Shown in pieces: positions 9,798 to 42,620 of a DNA stretch of 64,000 nt. The stretch covers positions 491,186 through 555,185 of the forward strand of contig CAWHCC010000003.1 in assembly GCA_963827805.1 (NCBI GenBank). Reading direction: 5' to 3'. The stretch's first letter is position 1. Each line of letters opens with the position of its first letter. The notes beneath the pieces were generated by a model. That model was not told the origin of the DNA and ran no database searches. It saw only the letters and a program-made list of their open reading frames with translations. The translations under genes and the position numbers were made by a program. This DNA is from an uncultured Chloroflexia bacterium (lineage in GTDB: Bacteria; Chloroflexota; Anaerolineae; Anaerolineales; UBA11858).

Positions 9798-10844
9798 TCA
9801 GGCTCCCCGGACATCAGGCACTTGTCGGCCGTAATTCTCCTGGTAGGGTTGATTTCTTTTGAGCATGTGGTAAGCAATCGTCAGCAGTCGTCTGGCAATG
9901 GCCACTTTGGCACCCTTTTTGCCGCAGCGTTTGATCAGCTTCTCGTGTACTAAATACCAGCGTTTGCTTCTCATGCTGGCCGCGGCTGCCGCGCGGGTCG
10001 TCGCACCTCGCAAAAAGGGAAATCCTTCTTTGGAGATGCGACCATGCCGGGTGATCCCAGCACTGCTGCGGACGCGGGGGGTCAGTCCTGCCCAATTGCA
10101 CAGGGCCTTAGGAGAGTGGAAGCGCTGGATATCACCAATCTCAGCTATCATTGTGGTGGCAATGATCTGGCCTACACCGGGTATCGTTTTGAGCAGTTTG
10201 ACAGCCTCTTTGTGCTCCGGTATGTTTTTCAGATCTTTTTCCAGCGCTTCAACGTGCTTGTCCAGGTGTTCGATGATGGCCAGGTGATCTACGATCACCC
10301 GCTGGGCTGCCGCGCGCAGCTGATCTCCTGCTAGCACGTCTTGCAGCCACTCTCGACCGGCCTTGCCGAACAGGTCTGTGACTGGCGCTCTGAGATTGTA
10401 GCCCGCCAGCACGGCATGAATGCGGTTCTTGGATTGACTGCGTTCCTGGACCAAGATCTCTCGATGGCGAACGTAAAGCCGTAGATCTCTCGTCTTCGGT
10501 GGCGCGGCATAGGCTATCGGCAGGTAGTTCAGACGGGCCAACTGTGCCAAGACTCTGGCGTCGATCCGATCGGTCTTTACCGCCGCAGACGAGATCGCCT
10601 TCAGTTCCTTTGGGTGTGCCAGTTCCACCCGTTCCACATGCGCTGAGAGCAGATCGTACATGAACGGCCAGTTACGGGTTGCTTCTAGCACGGCATAGGT
10701 CTTTCTCGGTACGACTTCTGCGAGATATTTTGAGATATCATCGTTCCGAATCTGTCGTTCGTCGATGACAGCGCCTGCCTTGTCGATCAATACCATATAG
10801 GTTTTGGTATTGTGCAGGTCGATCCCAAGGTAAAATGGATACAT
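9798..10844 (-). CDS. IS110-family transposase (DEDD recombinase)
   Basis: The N-terminus has YLGIDLHNTKTY. The C-terminal part reads LKTIPGVGQIIATTMIAEIGDIQRFHSPKALCNWAGLTPRVRSSAG. The element probably spans about 9735-10960; no clear inverted repeats are seen, as expected for IS110. Confidence 0.85.
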   Translation of the reverse strand: MYPFYLGIDLHNTKTYMVLIDKAGAVIDERQIRNDDISKYLAEVVPRKTYAVLEATRNWPFMYDLLSAHVERVELAHPKELKAISSAAVKTDRIDARVLAQLARLNYLPIAYAAPPKTRDLRLYVRHREILVQERSQSKNRIHAVLAGYNLRAPVTDLFGKAGREWLQDVLAGDQLRAAAQRVIVDHLAIIEHLDKHVEALEKDLKNIPEHKEAVKLLKTIPGVGQIIATTMIAEIGDIQRFHSPKALCNWAGLTPRVRSSAGITRHGRISKEGFPFLRGATTRAAAAASMRSKRWYLVHEKLIKRCGKKGAKVAIARRLLTIAYHMLKRNQPYQENYGRQVPDVRGA

Positions 10845-11177: not shown

Positions 11178-13070
11178 TCATAAAGGGTTCCCGCATTTTT
11201 TTTTAATTTCATCTATCACATCAACAAGTTCCAGCGGTTTTTTATACGGTCGTTCATCCATCATCGCCGAGAATGAGTCCACTACACTGACAATACGTGC
11301 CCCGAGTGGAATTTCTTCTTTGGCAGCCCCATGTGGATACCCAGAACCATCATATCTTTCATGGCTGTATTCAATAATTGGAGCAATATGTGTTAATTTT
11401 TTGATGGGTGAAATCATCTCTGCACCCATTTGTGGATGCCGGTAGATGATTTCCCATTCGGCCTCTGTCAAGGTTGTCGGTTTTAATAAAATCGCATCCG
11501 GAATACCAATTTTCCCAATGTCATGGAGTAATCCACCCCAATAGATGGCGTCAATATCTTCTTGCGAACATCCTAAAACCCTGGCTGTCTCGGCTGCCAT
11601 ATTCGCGATTTGCTGGCTATGATCACTTGTGTAGGTATCTCGAACATCAATTGCATTTGCGAGCGCAACAACAGTCTGTTCAAATGTATCTTCAAGCTCT
11701 TCGTATAACCTTGCATTCTCAACCGCAACGGCGGTCTGATTCGCCAATGTTGTCAATGTCCGTTGATCGTCTTGGGAAAAGGATTCCGCAGATTTTTTTG
11801 GGCCAACTGTCATAACACCAACCAAATCCTCTTTGGCGAGCAAGGGGATGTATAACTCTGCCCCAAGATTATCAAGGGTCTCGCGTTCTCTTACCCATAG
11901 AGATTTAAAAAGAGGGGAGATATTTAGAGTTTGCTTGGTAAGTACCTGTTTATTTTGACTGAGCCAGGATGCAATCGGATGATCTGACCTAATATTTTGG
12001 GTAATATCGTCATCGAAACCAATCTCATCTAGAACTTGAAAATTTCCATTTTGATTTTTCCTAATAAACATCGCTGCAGATTCAAGCTGCAGGACATCGA
12101 TGACTTCAGATAAAATAACATTCGAGATCTTGTCTAAATCGAGGAGAGTGGCCGTCATTTCACTAAGCCGTTGGAGCATTAGACTAGCGTTGTACTTTTC
12201 TCGATAGAACAGACGGTCGATCCAGGTTTGGGCAAAATTCCTTAATGGATCGAATAAAACCGCAAATAGGATCGCGATTAGTATCGAAACAAATAAAACA
12301 TCACCCGTTTGCTGTGGTTGGAAAATTCGAATCACAATCGATATGCTTAGATAATAAATAGCTCCAAGGACCCCGGTCGTAACTGTATAAAGCAAACCAG
12401 CTCGGATTACGAGGCGAATATCCAATAATTGATGACGCAGGATTGCATATGCAATCAGCAAAGCGGAAATACCATTCGCAGTGATATCGATGGGGTATTT
12501 CCCAAGTGGTGTAAAATTGGCTATTGTTCCGAGGATGATGATGAGCAGGCCGAGTATAAGGTAACGAAATCGATTACGCTGAACTGGATTATCAATTTGA
12601 CGGTAACGTGTGATTAATTCCCCTAGTTTTATAAATACCAACGCATACCCCGGTAAAGCGACAAAAACTATCGTTGGATTTAACACATAATTAAGCTCAC
12701 CAGATTCATTTAGAAAAGCACCTTTTGCTACAACATCCGTGAAGATAGTTAGGATTACTGCAAAAATTCCATACCAATAAACCAAGGGCGCCCAGCGGAG
12801 ACGTCTAGAAAAAAGTGTTTCGATAAAATAAAATATGCTGATCCCCATGGTTATTCCAGCCGCCGACATCAACCTGAACCAAAATAAAGTACTCCCCAAA
12901 CCTGTTACAACCAAAAACGCACTTGCAGACCACACGAACATGGTCAACAGATAGATAGAAAATGATTCTCGCAACTGTGTCCGAGGTTTTGAAGTAATCA
13001 CCACGACAAACAGCACCCCGTATAAAATAGATGCCGTTATCGAGACGATGGCTGTGATTCCTGAACTCAT
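11178..13070 (-). CDS. Membrane-bound GAF / HD-GYP domain protein (cyclic-di-nucleotide phosphodiesterase family)
   Basis: About 260 aa of multi-TM N-terminus is followed by a central GAF-like region. The C-terminal part has LLHDIGKIGIPDAILLKP and YSHERYDGSGYPHG (HD-GYP signature). Confidence 0.85.
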   Translation of the reverse strand: MSSGITAIVSITASILYGVLFVVVITSKPRTQLRESFSIYLLTMFVWSASAFLVVTGLGSTLFWFRLMSAAGITMGISIFYFIETLFSRRLRWAPLVYWYGIFAVILTIFTDVVAKGAFLNESGELNYVLNPTIVFVALPGYALVFIKLGELITRYRQIDNPVQRNRFRYLILGLLIIILGTIANFTPLGKYPIDITANGISALLIAYAILRHQLLDIRLVIRAGLLYTVTTGVLGAIYYLSISIVIRIFQPQQTGDVLFVSILIAILFAVLFDPLRNFAQTWIDRLFYREKYNASLMLQRLSEMTATLLDLDKISNVILSEVIDVLQLESAAMFIRKNQNGNFQVLDEIGFDDDITQNIRSDHPIASWLSQNKQVLTKQTLNISPLFKSLWVRERETLDNLGAELYIPLLAKEDLVGVMTVGPKKSAESFSQDDQRTLTTLANQTAVAVENARLYEELEDTFEQTVVALANAIDVRDTYTSDHSQQIANMAAETARVLGCSQEDIDAIYWGGLLHDIGKIGIPDAILLKPTTLTEAEWEIIYRHPQMGAEMISPIKKLTHIAPIIEYSHERYDGSGYPHGAAKEEIPLGARIVSVVDSFSAMMDERPYKKPLELVDVIDEIKKKCGNPL

Positions 13071-14686
13071 AAAGTTTTGCTAGATGACTTTATCGATAGA
13101 AGTTTTTCCATAATATGATCTTTTGGTTGCATATGAGGGGGCTTGTAATGACCCAGATCCGCTCCTGCTTTTTGTTGTGCCTCCATATAAGCGGAAAACG
13201 AACCAGGTGTAAGAAGCGATACTTTCAAAGGATTATGATTTAACATTAATTTATAATCCTGAAATTCAGTTACTTGTCGTGATAAATGTTTGTCTATTAG
13301 TTCATACACTCCAGATTCAGAGCTAGGAGCCCCGGGATTCAACTCGAGGTAGATATGCAAAATTGGGTTGTCTTCGATAATCTCTTTTCTGGCGACCCAA
13401 TCGAAATAAATGATACCTGTTTCTTCGATCGCTTTCCAAATATCCTTCTCTGAAAAGCGAACCATGCTAGCAATATCAATTATGTCGATATCTCGTGAGT
13501 AGTATCGGACTTGAGGAAGAGTGCTCTTGATTTCTTCATCTCCAATAGAGATGACCTCAAACATATCTCCAACTCTATAACGCATAAATATTCCCCCATG
13601 GAAATTGCTAAAAACCAGCTCATAAATACCCACCTCTAGTTCGTCGAAAAGTACAGTCTTAACAGGGTGATCTGGATCCTTTTCTTGCTTGATGAGATCC
13701 TCCATGGGAATAAACTCCAGAAAACAGCAGTCTGGGAAAAAAGTCATCCCTTTAAAATTCCAGGATTGCATGCACATTGTTCCAGCTTCCGTGCTGCCAT
13801 AGCCTTCTAATGGCTCTAATCCCCAATAATGTTTGATTTTTTTACGATAAATTTCCGTGTCAGTTCCCCCTGTCATTACCCCTTTCAACTTCCAAATGTC
13901 TTTTGGTAGTAAGTTATTATTGTTAAATTTCGATTTTAATAGTGCTTTTATCAATCTCCATAACACGTATGGATTCAAATGCTGTAAGGATAACTTAGGA
14001 CTATTATTATTTGAAGATTCTTCAAATTGAGCACCTACTCTTGCCAACACACTTGCAATACCATAAAAATAGTCTACACCTTCTCGCATGGCCAAATTGA
14101 ATCCTGCCGCGATCCGTTCAGCAAAATCCATATTCTCACCTTCTTCTAAAGATGGTAAAAATTTCACATCCAACTGATCGTTTGTTGCCCGAGAAACATA
14201 ACCGGATATAAACGGGGGAGGAGCTGTAGCCAGGAGAATCCTATCATTCAATTGTAATTTGACATCTCCCGGTTCTGAACAAGCTGACATCATCATCGCT
14301 CCGATTACTGAATCAGCTAACCGATCATAAAATTGTTTTGTAATCGGAATCCATTTCGGGCCACCTCCGGAAGACCGGCCAGAAGTACGTCCCCAGTCAT
14401 ACGGTTTAACCGGAAGCACATCCTCATTCTTTCCAGAAAGCAAAGGTTCATAATCTGGGTATGTCGTCAATGGCACAGTTTCCCGAAATTCATCAACCGT
14501 TTGTGGAATCTGATCGCCTAAAATCGATTTGCCAATTTCCGATGATCCTAACAGCGTTAGCTGTTCGAACAACAATCGTTTTTGGATTCCCATGAACTCT
14601 GGTAATGTAAGGTGGATATATCCGCAATACATCTCCCAAAGCTCTGATTTTCTACCTTCTCGTAACATTTTGCTGGCTTTCTTCAT
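13067..14686 (-). CDS. GH3-family (ANL-superfamily) acyl-adenylate-forming enzyme
   Basis: GH3-like motifs are TSGRSSGGGPKWIP, EGYGSTEAG and RYRVGDMFEV. The length is 539 aa. ATGA overlaps occur with both neighbouring genes. Confidence 0.65.
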   Translation of the reverse strand: MKKASKMLREGRKSELWEMYCGYIHLTLPEFMGIQKRLLFEQLTLLGSSEIGKSILGDQIPQTVDEFRETVPLTTYPDYEPLLSGKNEDVLPVKPYDWGRTSGRSSGGGPKWIPITKQFYDRLADSVIGAMMMSACSEPGDVKLQLNDRILLATAPPPFISGYVSRATNDQLDVKFLPSLEEGENMDFAERIAAGFNLAMREGVDYFYGIASVLARVGAQFEESSNNNSPKLSLQHLNPYVLWRLIKALLKSKFNNNNLLPKDIWKLKGVMTGGTDTEIYRKKIKHYWGLEPLEGYGSTEAGTMCMQSWNFKGMTFFPDCCFLEFIPMEDLIKQEKDPDHPVKTVLFDELEVGIYELVFSNFHGGIFMRYRVGDMFEVISIGDEEIKSTLPQVRYYSRDIDIIDIASMVRFSEKDIWKAIEETGIIYFDWVARKEIIEDNPILHIYLELNPGAPSSESGVYELIDKHLSRQVTEFQDYKLMLNHNPLKVSLLTPGSFSAYMEAQQKAGADLGHYKPPHMQPKDHIMEKLLSIKSSSKTL

Positions 14687-15426
14687 GGCTCTCCCTCGAT
14701 GGATTTTTCTGCATGGATAATCAGTGCACTTGGTATCCAGAAGCGTTTTGTTTCTAGTTTAACAATTGAAATATTCTTAAATTCAAAATATTTTAATAAG
14801 ATGTTCCATTCTTTTTTAGATCGCACATTTGAAATTGCATCTGCTTCTGCCCATGCTCGATTTGGGCTTTCCTGAAACAGATAATAAATAAAAGCAAATA
14901 TTCTGAGAACCCGCTTTACACCTGGGAGCTTCCAAAGATTAGAACTTCCAACATCAGCAAATGCTAACATACCGCCAACCCTCAAAATACGATGGACTTC
15001 ATACAAAAGACGCTCAACATCCATGTGGTGGGTTGCCAGGCCACAGAAAACCAAATCATAAGTTTTCGCGGCGTAAGGCATTTCCATTGCCGATGCGCAA
15101 GTAAAGTCAATGGTTGTTGGAGATTTGCTTTGTTGATATAAATGATTTGCTCTGATAAGCATCGAATGTGTGATATCTAAACCATGAATTCGATAGCCAT
15201 TCTCTCCGATCTCCTTTATCATTCTGGGGATCTTACCAGTTCCCGTGGCAATATCTAGGATATCAAAATCCTCTTTTATTGGTGTCAAGCGAATGAGTGT
15301 ACGGATAAATTCTTGGTAACTCCATCCCCAAAATCTCTGCAATTCAAGGTTAACAGTTTCCTCATAATTTGGAGTCATCTCCGTAAAGGTTTGAATAATT
15401 TTTTCTTTATCATCCATGACGGTCAC
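14683..15426 (-). CDS. Class I SAM-dependent methyltransferase
   Basis: Motif I is ILDIATGTGKIP. The downstream YDLVFCGLATHHM and GGMLAFAD stretches are typical of the Methyltransf_11/UbiE-like fold. Confidence 0.8.
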   Translation of the reverse strand: MTVMDDKEKIIQTFTEMTPNYEETVNLELQRFWGWSYQEFIRTLIRLTPIKEDFDILDIATGTGKIPRMIKEIGENGYRIHGLDITHSMLIRANHLYQQSKSPTTIDFTCASAMEMPYAAKTYDLVFCGLATHHMDVERLLYEVHRILRVGGMLAFADVGSSNLWKLPGVKRVLRIFAFIYYLFQESPNRAWAEADAISNVRSKKEWNILLKYFEFKNISIVKLETKRFWIPSALIIHAEKSIEGEP

Positions 15427-15571
15427 TTCATTGTATAGAATGTATCACATCTCAAGCATAAAGTTAAGATAATGGTAGTTATAGGAATTCTTCCTGATCG
15501 ATCATCGAGAATACCCGCCCTAAGGTATCATTCGAAGGGATACCCTTGGGTAGAAACAGATACTGCTGCAA

Positions 15572-15769
15572 TCAATTAAGGTTCTGATAGCCGATTTGCT
15601 CGATCTCGGCCCAACCATCGGCCCCACAGATGGTACCCAAGATGGCGATCGTGATAATATCAAACAACTGGTGTGTTACGTTTGGTCCTCTTGCGTCTGT
15701 TACATTGGAAAAATGCTCTGCGAAACTTCCAATCGGCTCTGTTTCCACGGTAATCCTCCTGATTCTCAT
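15572..15769 (-). pseudogene. ISAs1-family transposase N-terminal fragment
   Basis: FAEHFSNVTDARGPNVTHQLFDIITIAILGTICGADGWAEIEQ closely parallels the N-terminus of the ISAs1 copy at 17526. Only 65 aa remain. Confidence 0.7.
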
Positions 15770-16487: not shown

Positions 16488-17036
16488 CTAAGATATTGTG
16501 GGGTTACCTGTAAGCTTACATGAAAAATTCTTGGGCGCTAATCTGGCGTAGATCATAAACCAAAGCATGTAAAATGTTCTAAACACTTCATTTGAGACAC
16601 AATGGACTAAGAACCTGTGTTGGACACGCTTTGTCAAGAGTAAAGAAAGCTCTCCGGGTTTGGTTTCGAAACGCATTATGGCTTTCCCGGGACACAACGC
16701 GCGCTTCGGCGCAATATACTATCTCTACATAGTATAGCCACCCGTATAACCTACGGCTTCGATTTCCCGCATGATCACCACTGCATTCCACACTCCTTCT
16801 GACAGCAAGCGATCGATGGTAGGTTTGTAAGGTTCCAGTTTACTCGGTTGGCATTTCCGTTTCTTTTCAGGTGCACCTGCGCGTTTCAGCGCCCGGCTGA
16901 CCGTTTTAGGATGCACCCCAAGTTCTTCATCGATGTCTTTGAGATAGACACCCCTGTCTTTCAATGTTTTAATCACGATATAGTCCTCCTGATTGAGCAT
17001 GTTTTTGTACCTCCGAATTGGTGATTTAGGGTACAT
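16488..17036 (-). pseudogene. IS21-family IstA transposase remnant (HTH region plus degraded continuation)
   Basis: ORF 16725..17036 reads DYIVIKTLKDRGVYLKDIDEELGVHPKTVSRALKR...KLEPYKPTIDRLL...EIEAVGYTGGY (IstA N-terminus). The shifted-frame continuation RFETKPGE lies in ORF 16488..16697. No DDE core is present. Confidence 0.6.
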
Positions 17037-17060
17037 TGTATGCGCGATTTGGGGGACTTC

Positions 17061-17420
17061 TTACCACCGTTCCTGACACCGTTTCTCTTTGCGTTTCTTC
17101 GATACATAGCAGTGCACGCTCAATTCGCTACCGGCATAGCCCTGTTCCTGAAATGCCTGGTAGATTTTGTGGGCCGTGTATCTTTGTTTGCGCGGCAGGC
17201 TCTCGTTTTCTTCCAGCAACCGTTCAATCTCATCCTTGTAGGGACCCAACACCGGCGCTGCCCTCGGCTTGCTCAGCGAGTAGCTCTCCACCTCCGCCGA
17301 TCCCAACGCTTTCTTGATGGTTTTCGGTGAGCGATGGTATTCTCGAGCAATTTGGCGGATCGATTTGTTTTCGTTGAAATAGGCGTTGCGTATCTCTGCG
17401 CGGCCTTGCACTGCAATCAT
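17061..17420 (-). pseudogene. Second IS21-family IstA N-terminal fragment
   Basis: EIRNAYFNENKSIRQIAREYHRSPKTIKKAL...VLGPYKDEIERLLEEN...TAHKIYQAFQEQGYAGSELSVHCYV shows the IstA N-terminal architecture. It is truncated at 119 aa. Confidence 0.6.
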
Positions 17421-17525
17421 CTCCTGTCTCCATTACCTCTAAGGGGTTCCCTACATAGTAATTAGGGCAATCCCATGTAAAAAAAGCTGAGATAATGGTA
17501 ATCCAGAAAAAAACGGAGGATTACC

Positions 17526-18686
17526 ATGGTAGACAAACCGCTAAGCAGCTTAGCAGAGCACTTTTCCAACGTAAAGGACCCGCGAGGGCCAAATATCGAG
17601 CAGCAACTCTGCGATATCATCGCGATCGCCATCTGGGGCACGATCTGTGGCGCAGATGGTTGGGTTGAAATCGAGCAATTCGAACATCAGAAGCTGAAAT
17701 GGTTGAGCCAGTATCTGCAGCGAGGAAACGAAATTCCAGCGCATGACACCTTTAGGCGGGTGTTTTTACAGATTGAGCCCGAAGAATTCCAGGCCAGTTT
17801 CATGAAATGAGTCCAAGCCTTACATCAAGTCACCCAAGGACAGGTGATCGGGCGGGCTGGTAAACAATTACGTGGCTCACATGATCGCAGCCAAGGTAAA
17901 AGGGCGATCTACCTGGTGAGTGCCTGGGCAGAACAGAACCATCTGGTGCTGGGGCAGCGTCACGTGGCTGAAAAAAGCAATGAAATCACCGCCCTCCCGG
18001 ACTTGTTACGCTTGCTGGAGATCACAGGCTGCCTTGTGACCATCGATGCCATGGGCACCCAGACCAAGATTGCGAAACAGATCATCCAGGCGGAAGGTGA
18101 TTATCTCCTGGCGGTCAAACACAATCAAGGCCAACTCTACCGCGACCTGGAAATCTTATTCTCCTATGATCAGCAGCAGGACTTTCAAGCCGCCCCTTAT
18201 GATTATGCTAAGGAAGTTAAGAAAGGTCACGGACGCAGTGATGTGCGAGAGTGTTGGGCCACCTCCGATCCCGCATATCTGCAAAGTGTCACTTAGGCTC
18301 AGAAGTGGTCCCATCTGCAAAGCATCATCATGCTGGTCCGCCGCCGCATCATTGCTGGCGAGGAAACCGTCAAAACTCGTTGCTACATCTCTAGCCTGCA
18401 GCCCGATGCCAAACGGATCCTGAAAGCCTCTCTCCAACACTGGTCCATCGAAAATGGTCTCCACTGGGTGCTGGATATCGCTTTCAACGAAGATCTCAGT
18501 CGCGTTCGCAAAGAGCATGCTCCCGCTAATCTGACCGTCTTACGCCTTATGGCTGTCAACCTGCTCATATCATCCCAATGCTCTTACGGGAAACAGGAGA
18601 CTTCTGCCAAAGGCAGCATCAAAGCCAAACGCTTGCAGGCTGGTTGGAATGAAGATTATCTGCTTAAGGTTCTTTCTGGGGCATAA
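17526..18686 (+). pseudogene. ISAs1-family transposase with two in-frame stop codons
   Basis: Three ORFs (17526.., 17844.., 18330..) are all in the same frame. They are separated only by TGA 17808-17810 and TAG 18294-18296. ISAs1 hallmarks present: VSAWAEQNHLVLGQ, EKSNEITALPDLL, VTIDAMGTQTKIA, HWSIENGLHWVLDIAFNED. Confidence 0.8.
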
Positions 18687-18769
18687 TATGCGCTTGCCCT
18701 AATACGACAGATGGATTCGTGTAAGTTTGTAGGGAAGTATGGTGATGGCAGCAATTCATTCACAAATAG

Positions 18770-18778
18770 TGCTAAAAT
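18770..18778 (+). promoter_or_regulatory. Possible extended -10 element (TGCTAAAAT) for the TIR cassette
   Basis: TGnTAAAAT lies about 30 nt upstream of ATG 18810. I found no convincing -35 element. Confidence 0.3.
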
Positions 18779-18809
18779 ATCCTTATAAGCTTTCACAAAG
18801 GGTGAAGAT

Positions 18810-19412
18810 ATGGCGTATGAGTATGATGTTTTTCTAAGCTATAAGCGAGAGTTTGCTGAAAACTGGCTTACCGAGATTTTCCTGCCACGTTTTCGTTTTT
18901 ACCTGGAAGATCACCTGGGTGCACCACCAAAGATTTTCATGGATACATCTGGAGGTATCCGTTCTGGGGATGACTGGGAGTTGCGGTTGAGGTATGGGCT
19001 ATCAAGATCCAAGTGTTTGGTCGGTATCTGGTCGCCATCTTACTTTCAATCACGCTGGTGCCGCTTTGAATGTGAAGTGATGCTAGAGCGTGGCAAACAG
19101 CTTGGCTATCACACAGAAGAAGATCCTTCTGGCATTGTGCATGGTGTTGTTATCTCGGACGGACGAAATTTTCCAGAATATGCACAACGAATACAATATT
19201 TCAATAGTCGCAAGTATATGCTTGATGGTGGGTTCTACAAAGACACACCTGATTATGTCGAGTTTCAACATGAGCTAAGAACCTGGGTTGAAGATGTTGT
19301 GGAAAACATCTTTGAGAAAGTGCCACCCTGGTCAGAAGATTTTACTCAGATACCTGACAACACAATTGAAGTAAAACCGGTCGAGCATGTTAATCAACCG
19401 GTGATGGGGTAA
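18810..19412 (+). CDS. Stand-alone TIR-domain protein (200 aa) with uncharacterised C-terminal half
   Basis: YDVFLSYKREF forms the TIR betaA strand. A DW motif is present, and SPSYFQSRWCRFECEV matches the S-x-W-C-x-x-E segment that carries the catalytic Glu in NADase TIRs. The RBS is AGGGTGA. Confidence 0.75.
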   Translation: MAYEYDVFLSYKREFAENWLTEIFLPRFRFYLEDHLGAPPKIFMDTSGGIRSGDDWELRLRYGLSRSKCLVGIWSPSYFQSRWCRFECEVMLERGKQLGYHTEEDPSGIVHGVVISDGRNFPEYAQRIQYFNSRKYMLDGGFYKDTPDYVEFQHELRTWVEDVVENIFEKVPPWSEDFTQIPDNTIEVKPVEHVNQPVMG

Positions 19413-19418
19413 TGAGCT

Positions 19419-20762
19419 ATGGGTCAAATTATCACATTTTATTCATATAAAGGTGGGGTCGGTAGGACGATGGCACTTGCCAATGTGTCTGTTATTTTGG
19501 CAAAGTGGGGTTATCGTGTGCTGGTAGTTGATTGGGACTTGGAAGCCCCTGGTCTGGGTTACTTCTTCAAGAATTATGTAAATCCCGATGAATATCAGTA
19601 TATGCGAGAGCAAGCTGGCATTGTTGATTTGCTCATCCAATACTTAGGAGAAAATTCATCCAGCCTGGACTATGTTGCTGCTCCATTCAACGTAGAAAGC
19701 GTGAATAATAACCCGATCCATTTTATTTCTGCCGGCAGACGAGAAGGGGACCGCAGTCAATACCTGAGCAAGGTTCGGCAACTGGATGTCAGCGATTTTT
19801 ATCAACATAAACGGGGTGGATTGTTCATTGAAGAGTTGCGTAACAAATGGAGGGAAGATTACGATTTTGTGCTAATCGATAGTCGGACCGGAATCACGGA
19901 TATCGGTGGTATCTGTACCATCCAACTTCCTGATAAGTTAGTTATGTTGTTTGTGGCGAATAAACAAAACGTAAACGGAACTGTTGACGTGTTTCGCAGA
20001 GTCAAAGAAGCCAGATATGAACTGCCGTTCGATCGTCAAGCGCTAGTTTCTGTTCCTATAGCTACCCGATTCGAAATCACTGAGTATAAGTTATCCCAAG
20101 AGTGGCTGGATTTGATCAATGAAGCTATGGAACCGCTATACTCAAACTGGTTACCAAAAAAAGTGGAATCCAAAACAATGCTTGAGCGTACCAGAATACC
20201 TTATATCCCGTATTTTGGTTTTGGAGAAAAGCTTCCTGTCATTGAGCAAGGTACAGATGACCAATTGAGTCTTGGCTATTCCTATGAGAGTTTGGCTGCA
20301 CTACTCGGGAATAACCTGACTGATGTGGACCAATTCACCCGAAGAAGGGATACCTACCTTGAAGCGGCCAGGAAGAAAGAAGTCTCTGTCTTTATCAGTT
20401 ATTCTCGAAAAGATAGAGATTTTGTCACCATGTTAAGTGAGGATTTGAGGAAAAAGGGTATCAATGTATGGATCGATAGTTCCATTGCAGGTGGAGAGAG
20501 TTGGCGGAGCACCATAACAGAGAATTTGGTGAAAGCGAGTGATGTAGTAGTCGTATTATCCTTTAGCGCTGCGGCATCATCCTGGGTTCAACAAGAAATC
20601 TCAATAGCTTATTCACGTGACAAGAAAATGATCCCTGTTTTGATCGATGATTTGCCACCCAATGAGATTCCTATATCCTTACAAGATTTCCAGTTGATTG
20701 ATTTTCGGCAGACACCTTATGAACTAGCGTTCAGAAGGTTGTTGACCAGTCTACAAGGCTAG
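19419..20762 (+). CDS. ParA/MinD-like P-loop ATPase with deviant KGGVGR Walker A, fused to a C-terminal TIR domain
   Basis: The N-terminus has ITFYSYKGGVGRTMALANVSVILA, VVDWDLEAPGL and the Walker B DFVLIDSRTGITD. The C-terminal ~125 aa reads VSVFISYSRKDRDF...INVWID...SSWVQQEISIA (TIR with conserved Glu). It starts 6 nt after the upstream stop. Confidence 0.8.
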   Translation: MGQIITFYSYKGGVGRTMALANVSVILAKWGYRVLVVDWDLEAPGLGYFFKNYVNPDEYQYMREQAGIVDLLIQYLGENSSSLDYVAAPFNVESVNNNPIHFISAGRREGDRSQYLSKVRQLDVSDFYQHKRGGLFIEELRNKWREDYDFVLIDSRTGITDIGGICTIQLPDKLVMLFVANKQNVNGTVDVFRRVKEARYELPFDRQALVSVPIATRFEITEYKLSQEWLDLINEAMEPLYSNWLPKKVESKTMLERTRIPYIPYFGFGEKLPVIEQGTDDQLSLGYSYESLAALLGNNLTDVDQFTRRRDTYLEAARKKEVSVFISYSRKDRDFVTMLSEDLRKKGINVWIDSSIAGGESWRSTITENLVKASDVVVVLSFSAAASSWVQQEISIAYSRDKKMIPVLIDDLPPNEIPISLQDFQLIDFRQTPYELAFRRLLTSLQG

Positions 20763-21037: not shown

Positions 21038-22275
21038 TTACGTTGAGACAAAAGTTCGGACATTGCCATAAACGAGTATCGGGATGAGGCCCAAGACCGC
21101 CTGGGCGATGAGTGCGAGAACTTGATCAGGCAGCTTGGGTTTTTGGATGAGGAAAACAAAAGGACCAGAGTAAAGCCGCCATTTGCGATGTTGAGAAATT
21201 TGTTCAAGGACTTCACCAAAGAGATTTTCTTGGACTTGTTGGGGATCGAGTTTGCCATCGGTGACATCTCTTTGAGCTTCACCAAAGAGCAAGGCGATGA
21301 TAAAGGCATTTAAGGTGAGGGCGATCATCTTTTCGAGATAATCCCGGCGTTTGTTCATCAGTTTAGGCAAATGCAACGGGTCTTTACAATGTCGGAAAAG
21401 TCATTTAGATTTTCATGCGATTTAGGAAAATCTGGAGGGCTGTTTTAGGTTCCAGACTGGAAATCACTCATAAGGAGTTACTCATGCCTTTGCGCCAGTG
21501 GCCAATCAGATTGACGGGCACCACACCGAGATAAAAACCTGCCAGTGGATGACGGTCTTACCCGGACGCACAAACAGCTTAATGGGATTACCCTCGGCAT
21601 CGATCAGACGCGGTTGTTTGTGCTGATCCCCCAGATTCAAGCGGATCACAAACTGGATCTGCTCGCTATACAAGCGCTCCATCAGGGCGCGGTAGCCAAA
21701 CTCCCGGTCCAACACCAGGGGTCTCTCTCCCAAGAGCTCTTTCACGGCTGCAAAACAGCGCGTATGCTCCTGGTTGCGCGAAGTCACCTGCTCTCCGATG
21801 GTTTTCGATGAATAAGTGATGAAATGGAAGGGGATCGCCCGGCCCCGAAAGGGGGTCGACAGGGCCAACAACCAATAACCAGGTGTTTGACCATCCGCAA
21901 GGGTGCCCACATAGGCGGTTTTGGGGGCCTTGTACCTCGCCATCTCCGTCGGATCTCCGATCACAAAAAGTCAGCCTCCTCCTGATACAGGCGCAGCAAG
22001 GCGGCCTGCACATCGGTCTGGCTGATGAAACGCTGGATCGCTTGGTAGTTGCTTTCACTCTGACCTGCCATTTGCTTTGCAATGTTCGTCAGCCGGGGTG
22101 ATTTGGCTGCGAGGATCGTTGGCCCGATCTCGCCACCTTTCTCCGCTTGCTTTTTATCATCGATTAGGTAATGCATAATTTCAGCATAGTTGATAAACTT
22201 GTTCATGGAAGTCTCCTTTCTGAGATACCTGGCTAGGGTTTTTCTCAGTTTAGAGGCTTCCGCTTCTTTTTTCAA
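21038..22275 (-). pseudogene. IS4-superfamily-like DDE transposase, fragmented into three ORFs
   Basis: The three ORFs are 21961..22275, 21506..21964 and 21038..21376. The junction reads ...YQEEADFL*/(V)IGDPTEM across a T5 run. A LVLDREFGY DDE-like motif is present, and there is a second disruption between 21376 and 21506. Confidence 0.6.
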
Positions 22276-23167: not shown

Positions 23168-24149
23168 CCGGATGTGCAAGTATTAAACTACGAGTTTAGC
23201 CAAATGGAGCGGTGGCAGCTCTGCTTGGCAACAAAATAGAACGGCAATCGTATGGCTTAAGAGCTTGCGCATCCACCGAGAAGTGAGATGCCAAGCATCC
23301 CGAGCCCAGACTTTCTTGATATGAAATCGATCCACGAGTTGTCCAATCACGGTTTCAATCCGATAACGCATGTGTGTCAGCTGAAGCGGAAAACGAAAGG
23401 GTTCACGCTGCGCGCTGCGGAAAGGTGTCACCAGGCCCAAACCGCGCGCTTGCAGGGTTTCCTGCAAAGCAGGTTTCCAATAGTTGCGATCACCCAGCGC
23501 CCAACCGCGACAATCAGAGAGCAAGGTTTCGGCGGCGACGGTGTCATGCACATTGGCCAGGGTTACCCGCACATCGGAGATCACCCCAGACCAACGGAGA
23601 CACGGGTGTACCCGAAAGCCATCATAGGTCTGGCGCGCCACTTCATCATGACCAAAGGCCGCCTGACCTTGGAAACTTTGACAGCGTGGGACCCGGGCAA
23701 AGCGACACACCGGCACCGGAAAGCTGTCGATGACCGTAATCAGATCATCCTGCGGCACCTGGTTGACCAGGGCTTGCCACAGTTCCCGTTTCACGAACCA
23801 CAGGTTGGCCGCCGGTCGCAAAAAAGTCGTGCGGTGAATACGCCTCAACTCGGGAAACAATTCTCCAAAGTGCCTGCGGAAGTAGCGGTACAGCCCACTG
23901 TCCGTGTCGAGGCCCATGAACTCGCCGACCACTTCAATGGTCAGCACTTCCGCATCACTCAGCCTCGGTTGCAGACCCCGCGCGCGCAAGCGCCGGTCGC
24001 CTAACCAGTTGTCTATCAGACAATAAACGCTGACCAAAAAAGTGGTAATATCCATGGCAGAGACCTCCAGTTAGATGTTTGGATTCGACACCTAATTTCT
24101 AACGGTGGTCTTTATCTTATGTCAAGGTACTTGAAAACTTACACATCGG
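23168..24149 (-). mobile_element. IS982-family insertion sequence (apparently intact, ~982 bp)
   Basis: Imperfect terminal inverted repeats are CCGGATGTGCAAGTATTAAACTA (23168-) and the reverse complement of GGTACTTGAAAACTTACACATCGG (-24149). The interior is visibly more GC-rich than the flanks. Confidence 0.75.
23183..24055 (-). CDS. IS982-family transposase
   Basis: Matching features: VIDSFPVPVCRFAR, ANVHD, LGDRNYW, YRIETVIGQLVDRF. The 290-aa length is typical of IS982. Confidence 0.8.
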   Translation of the reverse strand: MDITTFLVSVYCLIDNWLGDRRLRARGLQPRLSDAEVLTIEVVGEFMGLDTDSGLYRYFRRHFGELFPELRRIHRTTFLRPAANLWFVKRELWQALVNQVPQDDLITVIDSFPVPVCRFARVPRCQSFQGQAAFGHDEVARQTYDGFRVHPCLRWSGVISDVRVTLANVHDTVAAETLLSDCRGWALGDRNYWKPALQETLQARGLGLVTPFRSAQREPFRFPLQLTHMRYRIETVIGQLVDRFHIKKVWARDAWHLTSRWMRKLLSHTIAVLFCCQAELPPLHLAKLVV

Positions 24150-24386
24150 GTTAATTAAGCTTTAATGCCAGCAAACTCCATCCGTCGTGCTATCTATTAG
24201 TCCCCAGCATAAATTCCAGCGATGGAAGTATAAGAATTATAAAAGATACGTTACCATGATAAACAAAAACATGGATACAAAAAAATTATTACACCTTAGG
24301 GCAGTATTTCAGGAAAAAAATATGCTATAGTATATTTGTCCAGACAAGCGATCTCGTTCATTCTCAGAATTCAGGGTCAAGTTTCG

Positions 24387-27008
24387 GTGACAAACCCTCT
24401 CCTCGCTACAAAACTCTATATCCCCAGAAATCACTCCTATACCATTTCCCGCTCGCGCCTGCTAAGATGTTTGGATACAAATCTGCTCTCGGAGAATGGC
24501 TTCGCGCGCGGCGTAACCCTCGTATCGGCCCCAGCCGGTTACGGTAAAACCACCCTGGTGATCGATTGGCTCAGGCATTGCCAATTCCCGACAGCCTGGC
24601 TTTCTCTTGACGGAGGTGATAACGATCCAGCGCGTTTCTTAGCTTATCTGATTATCGCCATTCGACGGGTGCAAGATAATTTTGGGGAGAACATCGAGTT
24701 GATGCTGAAAGCAGCAGGCCCGCCTCCTCCCGATATTATCTTGACCGCCCTGATCAATGAAATTACTGCCATCCCCGATGCCTTTGTTTTGGTTTTGGAT
24801 GATTATCACACCATCCATGATGCCAGTACCCACCAACTGGTAGCCTTTCTTTTGGAACATAAGCCTCCCCAGATGCACGTAATCTTGATTACGCGGGAAG
24901 ACCCCCTCTTACCTCTCGCTCGTCTGCGCGCGCAGGGACAGTTGACTGATATCAGACAAGACGATCTACGTTTCTCGGCCCAGGAGTGTCAGGGTTTCTT
25001 GCAAAATGCCTTGGGAATCAAATTCAGCCAGACTGAAATTGAAGCCCTGGAGCGCCGCACAGAAGGCTGGATAACGGGATTGCAATTGGCTGCTATATCG
25101 TTGGCAAAGGAAACTGATCACCAAAAATTTATTCGGGATTTTACCGGCAGCAGTCGTTACATTTTAGATTATCTGATGGAGGAAGTCTTCAACCATCAAT
25201 CACCCGAATTACAGGATTTCCTGCTCAAGACTTCCATCCTTGACCGCTTCTCTGGTCCACTTTGTGATGCAGTAGTTGGCAAAAATGGCAGCCAGGATAT
25301 GCTGGAGGAGGGCGAACACGCTAATCTTTTTATCAGCTCGTTGGATCACTCCCGGGAGTGGTATCGCTACCATCGCCTGTTTGCTGAATTGTTACGCTAT
25401 CGTTTGCGCGCCCGAGTAGATATTGATGAGAATGATCTGCACGACAAGGCCAGCCAGTGGTTCGAAGAGAATAACTTTGTTGCCGAGGCTATCCAGCATG
25501 CTATCACTGCCCAAAATTGGTTGTGCGTTGCCCGAATTTTAAGCGAAACCCACACAGAGATGCTCAAACGAGGCGAAGCAGTTACACTGCTACGCTGGTT
25601 TGGCGCGCTCCCTGAGGATGTGCTGCGATCCGATCCCCAGTTATGTTTCGATTACGCCTGGCCTTTGTTGCTGACCGGTCATTATGATGAAGCCACTGAG
25701 TTATTAGCCCATGTCGAAGGGATTGCCCGAGAAATCCCTACTTTCCTGGGAGAAATTATGACGGCGCAAGCCTATCTTGCCAGAGCTCAGGGGGATCATG
25801 CCCGCATAGTGGAACGCTCAGAACGGGCCAGAGCGCTTTTGCCACAAGAATCCGTGCACTCACGATGTCTGGTGGCTATCAACCTGGGATTGGCTTACTG
25901 GCACCTTGGGGATATGGAAGCCACCGAAGAAGTTTTGGGAGAAGCGATCGAAACCAGCCGGGCGACCAGCAACTACTATGCTTTGACCACTGCCATCATC
26001 CTGCAGGGGCGGGTGCTGGCAGTGCGCGGTCAGCTTCGAGCCGCCGCCGAAAAATTTCAGCAGGCGGATAATGATGGGGGCAAACTCCCGATCAATGCTC
26101 TGACTAACCTTGATTTGTGCGCCCTGCACTATGAGTGGAATCAACTTGAGGAAGCCGAACCCTACCTGAAGAAAGCCTTCGAACTGAGCCAGCGTGGCCA
26201 AAACGAAGAGTTCGAAGTAGCCTGCTGGATGATGCAATCCTGCCTGCAATTGGCTCAAGGGAATCCAGATGCAGCGAAAAAAGCACTAACCAAAGCGCAG
26301 GCCCTCGTTGTCAAAGGCACAATCCCGCCAGGAACCGCAGCACGCTTTGAAGTCGCCAAGCTGCGCCTGGCTCTCGCTCAAGATGATGCGTCAGCCATCC
26401 AAAAACTGAGAAACATGATGGTTGACGATGTCGATTCGCATAATTTCAACCGTTTCACGAATTTAGCCAAAGTCAGATTAATGCTGGCCCAAAATCAGCG
26501 GGATCGGGCTCACAAATATCTAGCAGAGCTGACAACGAAGGCCGAACAAAAAGGCTGGTGCTACACCCTGATTGCCATTCGCGTTCATCAGGCTCTGGCA
26601 GTTGAAAACCGCGAGATGGCTGTATACTTCTTGGAAAGGGCTTTGAAACTTGCGCAACCCGAAGGATTTAAGCGCATCTTTATTGATCTTGGCCCAGCGT
26701 TAATCCCCCACTTGAAAGAAGCCGCCCGCTGTGGAGTTAAACCAGCTTATGTGCGAGAGATACTGTCTACTATTCAAAGTGAGCAGGGGGACGAGACGCA
26801 AGTCAGCAGCTTGGCCGAACCACTCAGCGAACGGGAATTAGAAGTGCTGCGCCTGGTTGTGGCGGGTCTCTCCAACCGGGAGATCGCCAACGATCTGGTC
26901 ATCAGTCTGGGAACAGCGAAAACACATATCCACAATATTTATGGCAAGCTGGAAGTCAGCTCCCGGGCGCAAGCCATCGCCCGCGCCCGGGAGTATGAGT
27001 TGGTGTAA
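24387..27008 (+). CDS. MalT-like STAND ATPase / TPR / LuxR-family transcriptional regulator
   Basis: The Walker A is VSAPAGYGKTTL and the Walker B is FVLVLDDYH. A long helical-repeat region follows, and the C-terminal part reads LSERELEVLRLVVAGLSNREIANDLVISLGTAKTHIHNIYGKL. I prefer GTG 24387 (VTNPLLATKLYIPR) to the track's TTG 24336. Confidence 0.85.
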   Translation: MTNPLLATKLYIPRNHSYTISRSRLLRCLDTNLLSENGFARGVTLVSAPAGYGKTTLVIDWLRHCQFPTAWLSLDGGDNDPARFLAYLIIAIRRVQDNFGENIELMLKAAGPPPPDIILTALINEITAIPDAFVLVLDDYHTIHDASTHQLVAFLLEHKPPQMHVILITREDPLLPLARLRAQGQLTDIRQDDLRFSAQECQGFLQNALGIKFSQTEIEALERRTEGWITGLQLAAISLAKETDHQKFIRDFTGSSRYILDYLMEEVFNHQSPELQDFLLKTSILDRFSGPLCDAVVGKNGSQDMLEEGEHANLFISSLDHSREWYRYHRLFAELLRYRLRARVDIDENDLHDKASQWFEENNFVAEAIQHAITAQNWLCVARILSETHTEMLKRGEAVTLLRWFGALPEDVLRSDPQLCFDYAWPLLLTGHYDEATELLAHVEGIAREIPTFLGEIMTAQAYLARAQGDHARIVERSERARALLPQESVHSRCLVAINLGLAYWHLGDMEATEEVLGEAIETSRATSNYYALTTAIILQGRVLAVRGQLRAAAEKFQQADNDGGKLPINALTNLDLCALHYEWNQLEEAEPYLKKAFELSQRGQNEEFEVACWMMQSCLQLAQGNPDAAKKALTKAQALVVKGTIPPGTAARFEVAKLRLALAQDDASAIQKLRNMMVDDVDSHNFNRFTNLAKVRLMLAQNQRDRAHKYLAELTTKAEQKGWCYTLIAIRVHQALAVENREMAVYFLERALKLAQPEGFKRIFIDLGPALIPHLKEAARCGVKPAYVREILSTIQSEQGDETQVSSLAEPLSERELEVLRLVVAGLSNREIANDLVISLGTAKTHIHNIYGKLEVSSRAQAIARAREYELV

Positions 27009-41785: not shown

Positions 41786-42452
41786 CAGCCACCGGCCATT
41801 CAGCTGGGTTCGCAGCCATCACAGCCTGCAAGGCACCAATCGCCATGCCATCTTGGGTCCAATAGCCATCGAGGTTGGGGTAAGCGGCCAGGAAGTTCGA
41901 CATGACCTGTTGTCCGGTAGCTTCGTCCCATTTGCCGGTGTCGCGGGCCAGTACATTGATGCCCGGATATTCAGCAAAGACTTCATCGACACCATCCATG
42001 CGAGCAACGTTAGCGGGATGTCCGGGGAAACCTTCAATCTCCACGATATCGCCTTCGCCGCCTAAGGTTTCCGCCAGCCATGTCGCACTGGTCATCGCCC
42101 ATTCTTTCTGGTCGATGCCCACATTGTAAACACCAGGCACATCCAGCTCTTGATCGACCGAGATCACGATAATGCCGGCGGCCAGGGCTTCTTCGAGGGT
42201 AGCATTCAGACCGTTGACATCACCTGGGTTGACCAAAATGGCGTCGACTTCTTTGGCCATCAAGTTCTGCAATTGTTGAATCTGACCCGCCACATCCGTA
42301 TCGGCGCTTTCAATCACCAACTCAGTTGTGATCCCAGCATCCATATATTCCTGGTTGACTTCGATCAGGCTGGCGATCATCTGGGTGCGGTACTCGCTGC
42401 TGATAAAGGGGTTCGAGATACCTATGGTGAATTTCCCATCATCACCAGCAGG
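40455..42452. repeat. Tandem duplication, two units of ~1011-1012 bp
   Basis: CTTCTTGATCGGTCAG occurs at 40474 and 41485 (offset 1011). CCGGTTGG..GCAATCGTCTCAAAGTCTGGATTGGTTTCGAG occurs at 40681 and 41693 (offset 1012). Identity is high by eye along the whole unit. Confidence 0.85.
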
Positions 42453-42620
42453 CTCTTCAGGCATTGCCTCCTCTTCCTCAGGCATGGCTTCCTCTTCAGG
42501 TTCCGAAACTTCAGGCTCTTCAGGCGCCATTGTTTCGGTTGCATCCGAGCCACAAGCTGCCAAAGCTACGAATAACATCACGAAAACCAGCAAAAAGCTA
42601 AGTAGTTTTATCTTCTTCAT
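41631..42620 (-). CDS. Sugar ABC substrate-binding lipoprotein copy 1 (3' end frameshifted at about 41670)
   Basis: ATG 42620 has AGGAGA upstream. The lipobox is FVALAACGS, followed by an acidic/Pro linker and then a PBP type-1 fold sequence. Relative to copy 2, the stretch CGCATTGCCGTTCAATATG has one extra nucleotide. Confidence 0.75.
   Translation of the reverse strand: MKKIKLLSFLLVFVMLFVALAACGSDATETMAPEEPEVSEPEEEAMPEEEEAMPEEPAGDDGKFTIGISNPFISSEYRTQMIASLIEVNQEYMDAGITTELVIESADTDVAGQIQQLQNLMAKEVDAILVNPGDVNGLNATLEEALAAGIIVISVDQELDVPGVYNVGIDQKEWAMTSATWLAETLGGEGDIVEIEGFPGHPANVARMDGVDEVFAEYPGINVLARDTGKWDEATGQQVMSNFLAAYPNLDGYWTQDGMAIGALQAVMAANPAEWPVAVGEGRCQFINLWTEVLETNPDFETIAVANQPGVSPTGLRIAVQYVVRRKSQ

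Follow-up and report, generated by a model that had tools for sequence, protein, structure and literature searches.

A small stand-alone TIR protein and a KGGVGR-variant NTPase form a nearly obligate gene pair with a probable role in NAD-based conflict

Introduction

TIR enzymes are central to the immunity of bacteria, plants and animals, and each new mode of TIR activation has proved informative. In CBASS, Pycsar, Thoeris and type III CRISPR signalling, a constant enzyme works with a constant nucleotide-binding domain that is fused to a variable domain. Here we describe a two-gene cassette within a 64,000-nucleotide stretch of DNA, the window, from an Anaerolineales-like member of the Chloroflexota (GenBank assembly GCA_963827805.1, contig CAWHCC010000003.1, positions 491,186 to 555,185). 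Gene 1 encodes a small stand-alone TIR protein, whereas gene 2 fuses a predicted MinD/ParA-fold NTPase domain with a KGGVGR motif to a second TIR domain. The two genes occur together almost without exception, and their sequences point to a probable role in conflict or immunity based on nicotinamide adenine dinucleotide (NAD).

Among known systems, Thoeris offers the closest functional analogy. Both it and the cassette are two-gene operons that place a small stand-alone catalytic TIR beside a nucleotide-binding domain joined to NAD-consuming or other effectors, and both use SIR2 and TIR as alternatives. In contrast to Thoeris, the partner domain of the pair is a P-loop NTPase of the MinD/ParA fold, and many of the partner proteins carry STAND sensors.

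A shared logic also links the cassette to SIR2-HerA, SPARTA (TIR-APAZ/Ago), TIR-STING and TIR-SAVED, and the TIR-NLRs of the Avs/bNACHT type. In all of these, a TIR or SIR2 NADase is fired by oligomerisation, with a nucleotide-binding or sensor module, fused to it or supplied by a partner, driving the assembly. The cassette differs from them in using a SIMIBI, MinD/ParA-like NTPase rather than HerA/FtsK, STAND or Argonaute, and in holding two distinct TIR families in one operon.

With MinD-MinE, ParA-ParB and Soj-Spo0J, the cassette shares the NTPase fold, the signature lysine and the switch-I and Walker B aspartates, as well as a small partner with a flexible terminal peptide that is encoded next door. 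Unlike in these pairs, the canonical P-loop lysine of gene 2 is an arginine, the NTPase is fused to immune-type domains and its partner is a TIR enzyme, not a DNA-binding or topological regulator.

Kaur et al. (2020, PMC7159879) had already assigned 'inactive' MinD/ParA-like domains to bacterial conflict systems. That study lists the domain among the effector-type domains of VMAP-ternary systems and also places it in stand-alone actinobacterial FxSxx-COOH peptide systems; we did not find the pairing of a small TIR with KGGVGR described there. Kaur 2021 mentions neither MinD nor ParA. Literature searches for a TIR domain joined with ParA-like and anti-phage gave no match, those for SIMIBI with a TIR domain gave Kaur et al. 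2020 alone besides an unrelated HEPN paper, and those for KGGVGR and FxsC/FxSxx-COOH gave nothing relevant. We class the pair as a variant of TIR-based conflict systems, not as a categorically new kind of element.

A nearly obligate gene pair

Gene 1 (18810–19412, ATG start, 200 amino acids (aa)) and gene 2 (19419–20762, ATG start, 447 aa) are two open reading frames (ORFs) on the plus strand. The TAA stop of gene 1 at 19410–19412 is followed by TGAGCT (6 nt) and then by the ATG of gene 2. Coordinates and spacer thus agree with a first-pass annotation of this DNA, and the motifs quoted in it (YDVFLSY, SPSYFQSRWCRFECEV, SYKGGVGRT, DFVLIDSRTG, VFISYSRKD and SSWVQQEISIA) are all present in the two translations. 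The features of the cassette, with AF2 for AlphaFold2 and pLDDT for the predicted local distance difference test, are:

18810–19412, plus strand: gene 1, stand-alone small TIR protein, 200 aa (ORF, Pfam, AF2, Foldseek)
19068–19070, plus strand: codon of Glu87 in W83-C84-R-F-E87, predicted catalytic glutamate (alignment, conservation)
19368–19409, plus strand: disordered C-terminal tail of gene 1, residues 187–200, ending in ...NQPVMG (pLDDT <50)
19413–19418, plus strand: 6 nt separating the stop of gene 1 from the start of gene 2; an operonic arrangement with probable translational coupling
19419–20363, plus strand: KGGVGR-variant NTPase domain of gene 2 with a predicted MinD/ParA/Soj fold, residues 1–315 (NF047398, AF2, Foldseek)
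19449–19469, plus strand: P-loop K11-G-G-V-G-R16-T17 (aligns with MinD KGGVGKT)
19878–19880, plus strand: codon of Asp154, the Walker B aspartate in DFVLID154SRTG (aligns with MinD YILVDSPAG)
20379–20762, plus strand: C-terminal TIR domain of gene 2, residues 321–447 plus stop (Pfam TIR_2, phmmer)
20595–20597, plus strand: codon of Glu393 in W389-V-Q-Q-E393, predicted catalytic glutamate of the fused TIR (AbTir alignment)

The public call of gene 2 is a 430-aa protein that starts at Met18. It therefore misses the KGGVGR P-loop (window 19419–19472), and the precomputed Pfam list for this call holds TIR domains only. Because residues 1–17 (MGxIITFYSYKGGVGRT) are conserved among 54 homologues, we take the ATG at 19419 to be the true start. 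Mis-called starts of this type may conceal family members in databases. The pair is present as a single copy within the window. Neither gene is shortened relative to its family, both retain every invariant residue and the usual short spacer separates them; for the first two of these reasons they look functional.

The joint recurrence of the two genes in other genomes, raised as a check in the first-pass annotation, exceeds chance by far and was observed from both directions. Gene 1 peptide patterns were used to scan one genome per species and returned 39 loci, three of which were set aside (two at a contig end, one a weak generic TIR match). A KGGVGR-ATPase ORF lies directly downstream on the same strand in 35 of the 36 evaluable loci, with L045 as the exception. 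In the reverse scan, metagenome contigs were searched with ATPase motifs alone (DWDLEAPG and KGG[VT]GR[TS][ML]AL) and the closest 80 loci were kept; 69 of the 71 that could be evaluated have a full-length gene 1 homologue directly upstream, its end only a few bases from where the ATPase starts. Likewise, in the unrelated neighbourhoods of three gene 1 homologues found by identity, a KGGVGR-ATPase gene directly follows the homologue.

The spacing is equally tight elsewhere, with a median of 5 nt over 102 related loci and a 4-nt overlap as the commonest value. Across 87 loci, the pairwise identities for gene 1 correlate with those for the ATPase domain (Mantel r = 0.73, reached by 0 of 999 permutations), and r is 0.49 once close pairs are removed. 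It is close to certain that the free TIR and the KGGVGR ATPase form a nearly obligate pair, and the sequence data indicate that the two genes co-evolve and are translationally coupled. No third gene is conserved, since the 135 genes flanking related pairs match 193 different Pfam families, the commonest of which, TIR_2, is found in just 6.

Two side observations concern the partner gene and its surroundings. Several copies in metagenome-assembled genomes (MAGs) of the genome scan are frameshifted, and the MAG loci L012, L013, L014, L016 and L018 combine an intact gene 1 homologue with an ATPase partner that is broken into pieces or truncated internally, which could reflect pseudogenisation or assembly error. 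In some lineages, for example Ferruginibacter MAGs, an ORF of 1270–1770 aa abuts the ATPase gene, starting at most about 20 nt past it or overlapping its end (L028 4411–9735, L031 10841–16144, L070 4327–8196, L079 7601–11425). This ORF may be a lineage-specific third component, or a sensor module that is encoded apart.

The pair spans many bacterial phyla and some archaea. Searching 1.84 billion representative proteins with the gene 1 profile returned 536 clusters (50% identity) at E ≤ 1e-30, and nearly all of the 150 clusters listed are stand-alone proteins of 190–215 aa. Homologues of the cassette proteins number in the thousands; the nearest relatives of gene 1 and gene 2 are 45% and 55% identical, respectively. 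The hosts in the genome scan comprise Anaerolineales, Chloroflexaceae, Streptomyces, Chitinophagaceae and other Bacteroidota, Acidobacteriota, Verrucomicrobiota, Planctomycetota, Nitrospirae, a Clostridia MAG, Thiothrix, a cyanobacterium and ANME-1 archaea. KGGVGR-TIR proteins are also found in Magnetomorum, KSB1, Aminicenantes and a Heimdallarchaeota MAG. The pair occurs mostly in lineages that are thinly covered by defence screens based on E. coli and Bacillus, and the public names of its proteins are generic ('TIR domain-containing protein', 'ATP/GTP-binding protein').

Gene 1 is a predicted enzymatic TIR

Gene 1 scores above the Pfam cut-offs for TIR_2 (39 bits, cut-off 28, 1.3e-9) and TIR (28.1 bits, cut-off 21.3). 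Its AlphaFold model, built from a 14-sequence alignment, has a mean pLDDT of 83.7 and shows strands alternating with helices from residue 5 to about 170. Foldseek matches the model with a probability of 1.0 to plant, bacterial and animal TIR structures, at template modelling (TM) scores of about 0.45–0.56. The best matches are the plant TIRs RPP1, RUN1, L7 and Roq1, with alignments that span 160–200 columns. Based on the model, gene 1 forms one whole TIR fold, of the flavodoxin-like type with five strands, from residue 5 to about 180, and its C-terminal half corresponds to the divergent second half of this fold. The protein had at first been divided into a TIR half and an unrecognised half, a view that the AlphaFold model and Foldseek do not support; only residues 187–200 are disordered.

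In the gene 1 family profile, W83-C-R-F-E87 aligns with 'SSWCLDEL' and 'STWCLEEL' of AtTIR and Roq1. This is the 'WCLxEL' segment, a W-x-x-x-E stretch of helix alpha-C that carries the catalytic glutamate of plant TIR NADases. E87 is 100% invariant in 99 unique gene 1 relatives that are 25–45% identical to the window protein, as are Y3 and S10, and C84 is conserved in 98%. An invariant catalytic glutamate favours enzymatic rather than scaffold TIRs, and from its sequence gene 1 is predicted to be a TIR of the NADase type with this residue intact.

The disordered tail also carries a recurrent feature. A P-x-[LIMFVW] motif is found within the last 8 residues of 76 of the 99 family members, compared with 12% of internal 8-residue windows. 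The tail could be a docking peptide.

Gene 2 carries a KGGVGR variant of the MinD/ParA fold

Residues 3–195 of gene 2 match the NCBIfam family NF047398 (AAA_KGGVGR, 'KGGVGR-motif variant ATPase') with 175 bits against a cut-off of 90. The AF2 model has a pLDDT of 91.2, and Foldseek places it with Soj (1wcv), MinD (1ion and 1g3q), ParA (8ray), FlhG and McdA at TM(target) values of 0.69–0.77. Despite the NCBIfam label 'AAA', the modelled fold is thus of the SIMIBI MinD/ParA type, as the first-pass annotation had proposed. The scores fall short of equivalog level, with 34 bits versus 212.9 for TIGR01968 (minD_bact) and 27.8 versus 180 for NF041546 (ParA_partition).

Aligned with MinD, gene 2 keeps K11, the signature lysine of the deviant Walker A motif, and has an arginine, R16, in place of the canonical P-loop GK[ST] lysine. 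The replacement had initially been assigned to the signature lysine, which is the wrong one of the two. Neither gene 2 nor any of 100 relatives has the complete Walker A motif 'KGGxGK[ST]' with its two lysines. In 100 unique ATPase domains with a mean pairwise identity of 44%, K11, G12, G13, G15, R16, D38, D40, E42, D154 and G158 are 100% conserved, which places the NTPase site under purifying selection; D38 and D40 are the switch-I aspartates. Mere loss of activity would not keep both the catalytic set and the arginine invariant, and we therefore infer that nucleotide binding is retained and that R16 is functional. This strict conservation of the nucleotide site argues against the 'inactive' label given to such domains by Kaur et al. 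2020.

A subfamily-specific helical region follows at about residues 223–315, a candidate surface for the binding of gene 1.

The fused TIR is one of many C-terminal modules

Residues 324–442 of gene 2 cover the whole of the TIR_2 profile (positions 1–122 of 122; 97.9 bits, 7.7e-28), and phmmer matches this domain to AbTir and other bacterial TIR structures. E393 aligns with the glutamate of 'DWTNYE' in AbTir, the catalytic E208, and reaches a conservation of at least 90% among 54 KGGVGR-TIR proteins. The TIR assignments and catalytic positions first proposed for both genes are therefore consistent with Pfam, Foldseek (gene 1) and the alignments to plant TIRs and AbTir.

The partner proteins of gene 1 relatives vary widely in this region. 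In 78 complete partner proteins, the regions past the ATPase domain yielded these Pfam modules:

TIR_2: 31 of 78
TPR types: about 15 of 78
NB-ARC: 7 of 78
NACHT: 6 of 78
FGE-sulfatase: 3 of 78
DUF4062: 3 of 78
CATASP: 3 of 78
SIR2_2: 2 of 78
pYEATS: 2 of 78
nSTAND1: 2 of 78

Among the ATPases of the metagenome scan, just 21 of 71 have a TIR that is found by our profile. Partner architectures include KGGVGR-TIR-NACHT-FGE-sulfatase in a Methanophagales archaeon, KGGVGR-TIR-NACHT-TPR, KGGVGR-SIR2 in Thiothrix and KGGVGR-DUF4062-NACHT-FGE-sulfatase; DUF4062 is described as a TIR-like NADase in preprints from 2026. The wider homologue list adds fusions to pentapeptide repeats, nucleoside phosphorylase, cyclase and SAVED. 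In 4 of 82 complete partners only 11–31 aa follow the ATPase domain, a number that may include split genes. Gene 2 itself is without NACHT or NB-ARC according to Pfam.

The invariant core is thus the free TIR together with the KGGVGR domain, and the fused TIR is one option among many. The first-pass annotation had cast the free TIR as a co-effector. This emphasis has to be reversed, because the free TIR is the constant partner and the fused TIR, present in 31 of 78, is one of many modules.

Comparison with named systems

As judged from profile matches, no named system covers the pair, be it Thoeris, the FxSxx-COOH system or the PADLOC candidate PDC-M28. The earlier statements that the pair is not recognised in full by any named system (PADLOC on gene 1, gene 2 and 121 family members) and that the window holds no ThsA, cyclase or STAND partner both stood up. 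For gene 1 and the family members, the PADLOC matches are of the generic TIR kind only.

Neither gene 2 nor the neighbours scanned over about 10 kb on each side contain SLOG, Macro or another known Thoeris sensor domain, and no CD-NTase or cNMP cyclase of CBASS or Pycsar is found in the cassette or the scanned neighbours. The PADLOC ThsB models do not match gene 1 at E ≤ 1, and 17 of 121 family members match them weakly (best 2e-6). The TIR of gene 2 matches the ThsB models at 1e-7 and Pfam ThsB_TIR with 30.7 bits (cut-off 21.2), which reflects generic TIR similarity. We also considered the 'ATPase'-class TIRs of Thoeris (Table S1, Yirmiya et al. 2025, 10.64898/2025.12.03.692087) as kin of gene 1 and rejected them; they score 15–48 bits on the gene 1 profile, and the family representatives listed score roughly 170–285 bits. 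The main text of the same preprint names no ATPase, ParA or MinD effector.

With the FxSxx-COOH and VMAP-ternary systems, the pair shares the AAA_KGGVGR family (NF047398), for which gene 2 lies above the cut-off, and a vocabulary of linked domains (TIR, NACHT/NB-ARC, TPR, FGE-sulfatase and CATASP). Gene 1 is distantly related to the N-terminal domain of the TIR-like FxsC (NF040588); it scores 42.6 bits on FxsC_Nterm and its Streptomyces relatives score 66–72, versus a cut-off of 130. In two Streptomyces loci (L021 and L029) KGGVGR is fused to a region above the FxSxx_TPR (NF040586) cut-off, and the pair is adjacent to a pectate lyase and regulators. No vWA, MoxR, peptidase, FxsA or FxsB radical-SAM gene was seen among the scanned neighbours in the window, in L021 and L029, or among the 25 commonest families of the 135 flanking genes; for the FxsA precursor this refers to general scans, with no search aimed at small FxsA-like peptides. 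Membership in the FxSxx-COOH system was rejected, with scores below the cut-off and no FxsA or FxsB. The link hinted at in the first-pass annotation holds as distant homology only, and the pair is related to the FxSxx-COOH system yet separable from it.

In PADLOC 2.0, residues 5–197 of gene 2 match two PDC-M28B models (2.2e-30 and 6e-17), which covers the ATPase part only. The models named PDC-M28A match neither gene 1 (E ≤ 1) nor 120 further family members (E ≤ 0.001), and our literature search found no mention of PDC-M28.

Proposed function and alternative explanations

The domain content, mobility and patchy distribution of the pair suggest an immune role, and from the sequences we regard an NAD-based conflict or immune function as likely. 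Support for this comes from the variable C-terminal modules, many of which are NAD-consuming or STAND immune domains. That the cassette is a self-contained two-gene conflict module, probably anti-phage and of the abortive-infection type, is our leading explanation, at slightly less than even odds. We put forward still more cautiously, by analogy, a mechanism in which the two proteins form a complex that acts as a switch.

In such a complex, the NTPase domain would serve as a nucleotide-dependent dimerisation switch like MinD, Soj or ParA, with the signature lysine and the switch-I and Walker B aspartates kept, and the invariant exchange of lysine for arginine in the P-loop may make it a slow or partner-dependent hydrolyser. 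The small TIR would dock on the switch via its disordered P-x-hydrophobic tail, similar to MinE and ParB peptides on MinD and ParA dimers. A trigger would then cause dimerisation or oligomerisation and set the free and the fused TIRs head-to-tail, as TIR NADases need. NAD+ would be cleaved (with depletion and/or products derived from ADP-ribose (ADPR)), and the infected cell would arrest or die. In relatives, the C-terminal modules could add sensors (NACHT/NB-ARC with TPR or FGE-sulfatase) or NAD-consuming effectors (SIR2, DUF4062). A domain earlier dismissed as 'inactive' thereby becomes a candidate regulatory switch, and a unit of about 2 kb, as here, is directly amenable to cloning and mutation.

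Several observations weigh against a defence function of this kind. Kaur et al. (2020, PMC7159879) predicted MinD/ParA-like domains to be catalytically inactive. Our synteny counts stem from the closest 80 or so ATPase relatives and from pattern-based scans, and for the wider subfamily the pairing frequency is an extrapolation. Among the window ORFs scanned, known defence genes are absent within about 10 kb of the cassette. In related loci the direct neighbours are mostly unrelated housekeeping genes, and the 135 flanking genes include 3 ThsB-like matches, 2 DNA methyltransferases and single others among the defence models, counts that come without a background control. Moreover, the viral contigs of IMG/VR hold neither gene 1 relatives nor the paired ATPase subfamily. 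Eight of these contigs (L129–L136), which may be true phage or misclassified cellular DNA, encode a more distant KGGVGR-ATPase subfamily of 641–1107 aa without a TIR or a gene 1 partner. The C-terminal regions of these proteins are NACHT or have no assignment, and most of the proteins match only profile positions of about 2–230, with one extending to 290. The pairing is therefore a trait of one subfamily.

The alternative that survives best, although we consider it unlikely, is a Thoeris-like arrangement. Here, the small TIR would sense infection and make an ADPR-derived signal, for which the KGGVGR domain would be the receptor; the altered P-loop would bind the signal instead of hydrolysing ATP, and ligand-sandwich dimerisation would fire the fused effector. 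The layout of the pair fits the architectural signature of such signalling (for the logic of Thoeris see 10.64898/2025.12.03.692087), TIR, SIR2 and nucleoside-phosphorylase modules follow the KGGVGR domain, the catalytic glutamate of gene 1 is invariant, and so is R16 with the remaining pocket kept. However, many partners carry a STAND NTPase with TPR or FGE-sulfatase sensors or are seemingly effector-less (4 of 82), the tight translational coupling and the conserved gene 1 tail suggest a stoichiometric complex, and the gene 1 relatives are not among the Thoeris ThsB clusters compared. We prefer the complex-and-switch mechanism because of the effector-less partners and because KGGVGR sits at the N-terminal 'effector end' of STAND proteins.

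A broader form of the signalling model is slightly more doubtful again. It would make the small TIR and KGGVGR a signalling family of its own beside Thoeris and CBASS, with most of its members outside Proteobacteria and Firmicutes and some in archaea. An ADPR-derived messenger would come from the free TIR, the P-loop derived from MinD/ParA and retooled with arginine would be the receptor, and the ligand-sandwich dimer of this receptor would fire interchangeable TIR, SIR2, DUF4062 and STAND effectors. If true, this would be the first SIMIBI P-loop NTPase fold to act as an immune second-messenger sensor.

The remaining explanations are less likely than either the complex-and-switch or the Thoeris-like mechanism. 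Obligate pairing, coupling, co-evolution and heterogeneous neighbours are typical of mobile two-gene addiction or abortive-infection modules, and insertion sequence (IS) elements surround the cassette in the window. The small TIR could accordingly be a constitutive NADase toxin that is restrained by the ATPase protein, or the reverse, and freed when the inhibitor is lost or modified in infection or stress. Such a toxin-antitoxin-like or guard function is improbable. Unlike a simple antitoxin, the protein cast as inhibitor is large, shows enzymatic conservation and in many cases has effectors and STAND sensors of its own, and neither a labile small antitoxin nor a DNA-binding autoregulator is present.

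An equally improbable explanation is non-immune. The module would act in division or chromosome-partition control, or in developmental or kin-directed programmed cell death of filamentous or multicellular prokaryotes, through a MinD-like domain that interferes with division and TIRs that work as scaffolds or as regulators linked to NAD. Kaur et al. (2020, PMC7159879) do class the domain with 'domains related to cell-division' and stress an enrichment in multicellular prokaryotes. The hosts of the pair include Streptomyces, Chloroflexota (as in the window), Thiothrix, Magnetomorum and a cyanobacterium, and its neighbours are mostly non-defence genes. Nevertheless, the invariant catalytic glutamate favours enzymatic over scaffold TIRs. 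The AF2 model of gene 2 ends in the final helix of the TIR and so leaves no room for a MinD-type membrane-targeting helix, and the 135 flanking genes show nothing ParB- or MinE-like among their 25 commonest Pfam families. The patchy spread across phyla and domains and the IS association indicate horizontal mobility and not a core role.

Least probable of all is that the family functions elsewhere and the window copy is a stranded relic, unexpressed among decayed IS elements, since the broken transposase genes on its flanks, the identities of just 55% (gene 2) and 45% (gene 1) to the nearest relatives and the lack of promoter- or terminator-like sites above shuffled expectation, in a promoter scan limited to the sigma-70-type consensus, stand against two full-length ORFs that keep their invariant residues and short spacer.

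Genomic setting of the cassette

The cassette lies among mobile elements, and position 18687 is the first base past the stop of the upstream transposase fragment. The surrounding elements are:

8040–9686: intact IS5-type gene, farther upstream
9798–10844: intact IS110-type gene, farther upstream
about 15484–15759: second ISAs1 N-terminal fragment (DDE_Tnp_1_assoc), upstream
16725–17420: IS21-like helix-turn-helix (HTH) fragments, upstream, between the two ISAs1 copies
17526–18686, plus strand: ISAs1-like transposase in three ORFs, adjoining the cassette upstream (Pfam DDE_Tnp_1_assoc, plus DDE_Tnp_1 over two ORFs)
23183–24055, minus strand: DDE transposase gene downstream of the cassette (Pfam DDE_Tnp_1_3 and DDE_Tnp_1)

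The first-pass annotation had described this setting as an IS graveyard typical of mobile defence loci. IS fragments do lie on both sides; a typical mobile defence locus is not apparent, because few of the 135 neighbours of related pairs match defence models and no known defence gene is found within about 10 kb in the window. A composite transposon was considered and rejected, as no repeats bracket the cassette. The sole repeat is an inverted one of 276 nt and 71% (15484–15759 versus 17515–17790), which corresponds to the N-terminal parts of the two upstream ISAs1-like transposases. Between the cassette and the downstream transposase, two neighbouring ORFs of 152 and 104 aa (21506–22275, minus strand) have no Pfam match and, judged by their position, may be pieces of an unclassified transposase. 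A scan for sigma-70-type consensus promoters and for terminators found no site above shuffled expectation, and Rfam has no match in the window. A housekeeping oxidoreductase encoded in the window shares 77–89% identity with metagenome proteins, the few named ones of which belong to Anaerolineales or Chloroflexota; the source is probably a filamentous member of the Chloroflexota, and an initial guess of a cyanobacterial origin was dropped.

The other neighbours of the cassette in the window include an ABC-2 transporter and a regulator of the MalT/LuxR type. The latter (24336–27008, 890 aa) lies 3.5 kb downstream, on the far side of the IS fragments, and comprises an AAA_16-like NTPase, a MalT TPR region and a GerE HTH; no tie to the cassette was seen in related loci. 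Upstream, an operon-like group on the minus strand (11178–15426) encodes a GAF-HD (HD-GYP-like) protein, a homologue of GH3-family adenylating enzymes, a type that is unusual in bacteria, and a class I methyltransferase. Farther downstream, a gene for a periplasmic sugar-binding protein is duplicated in tandem (40458–40952 and 41469–41964, period about 1012 nt, 81–93% identity). The duplication, which could be recent or an assembly artefact, results in the overlapping ORFs 40451–41785 and 41631–42704, which share near-identical protein segments.

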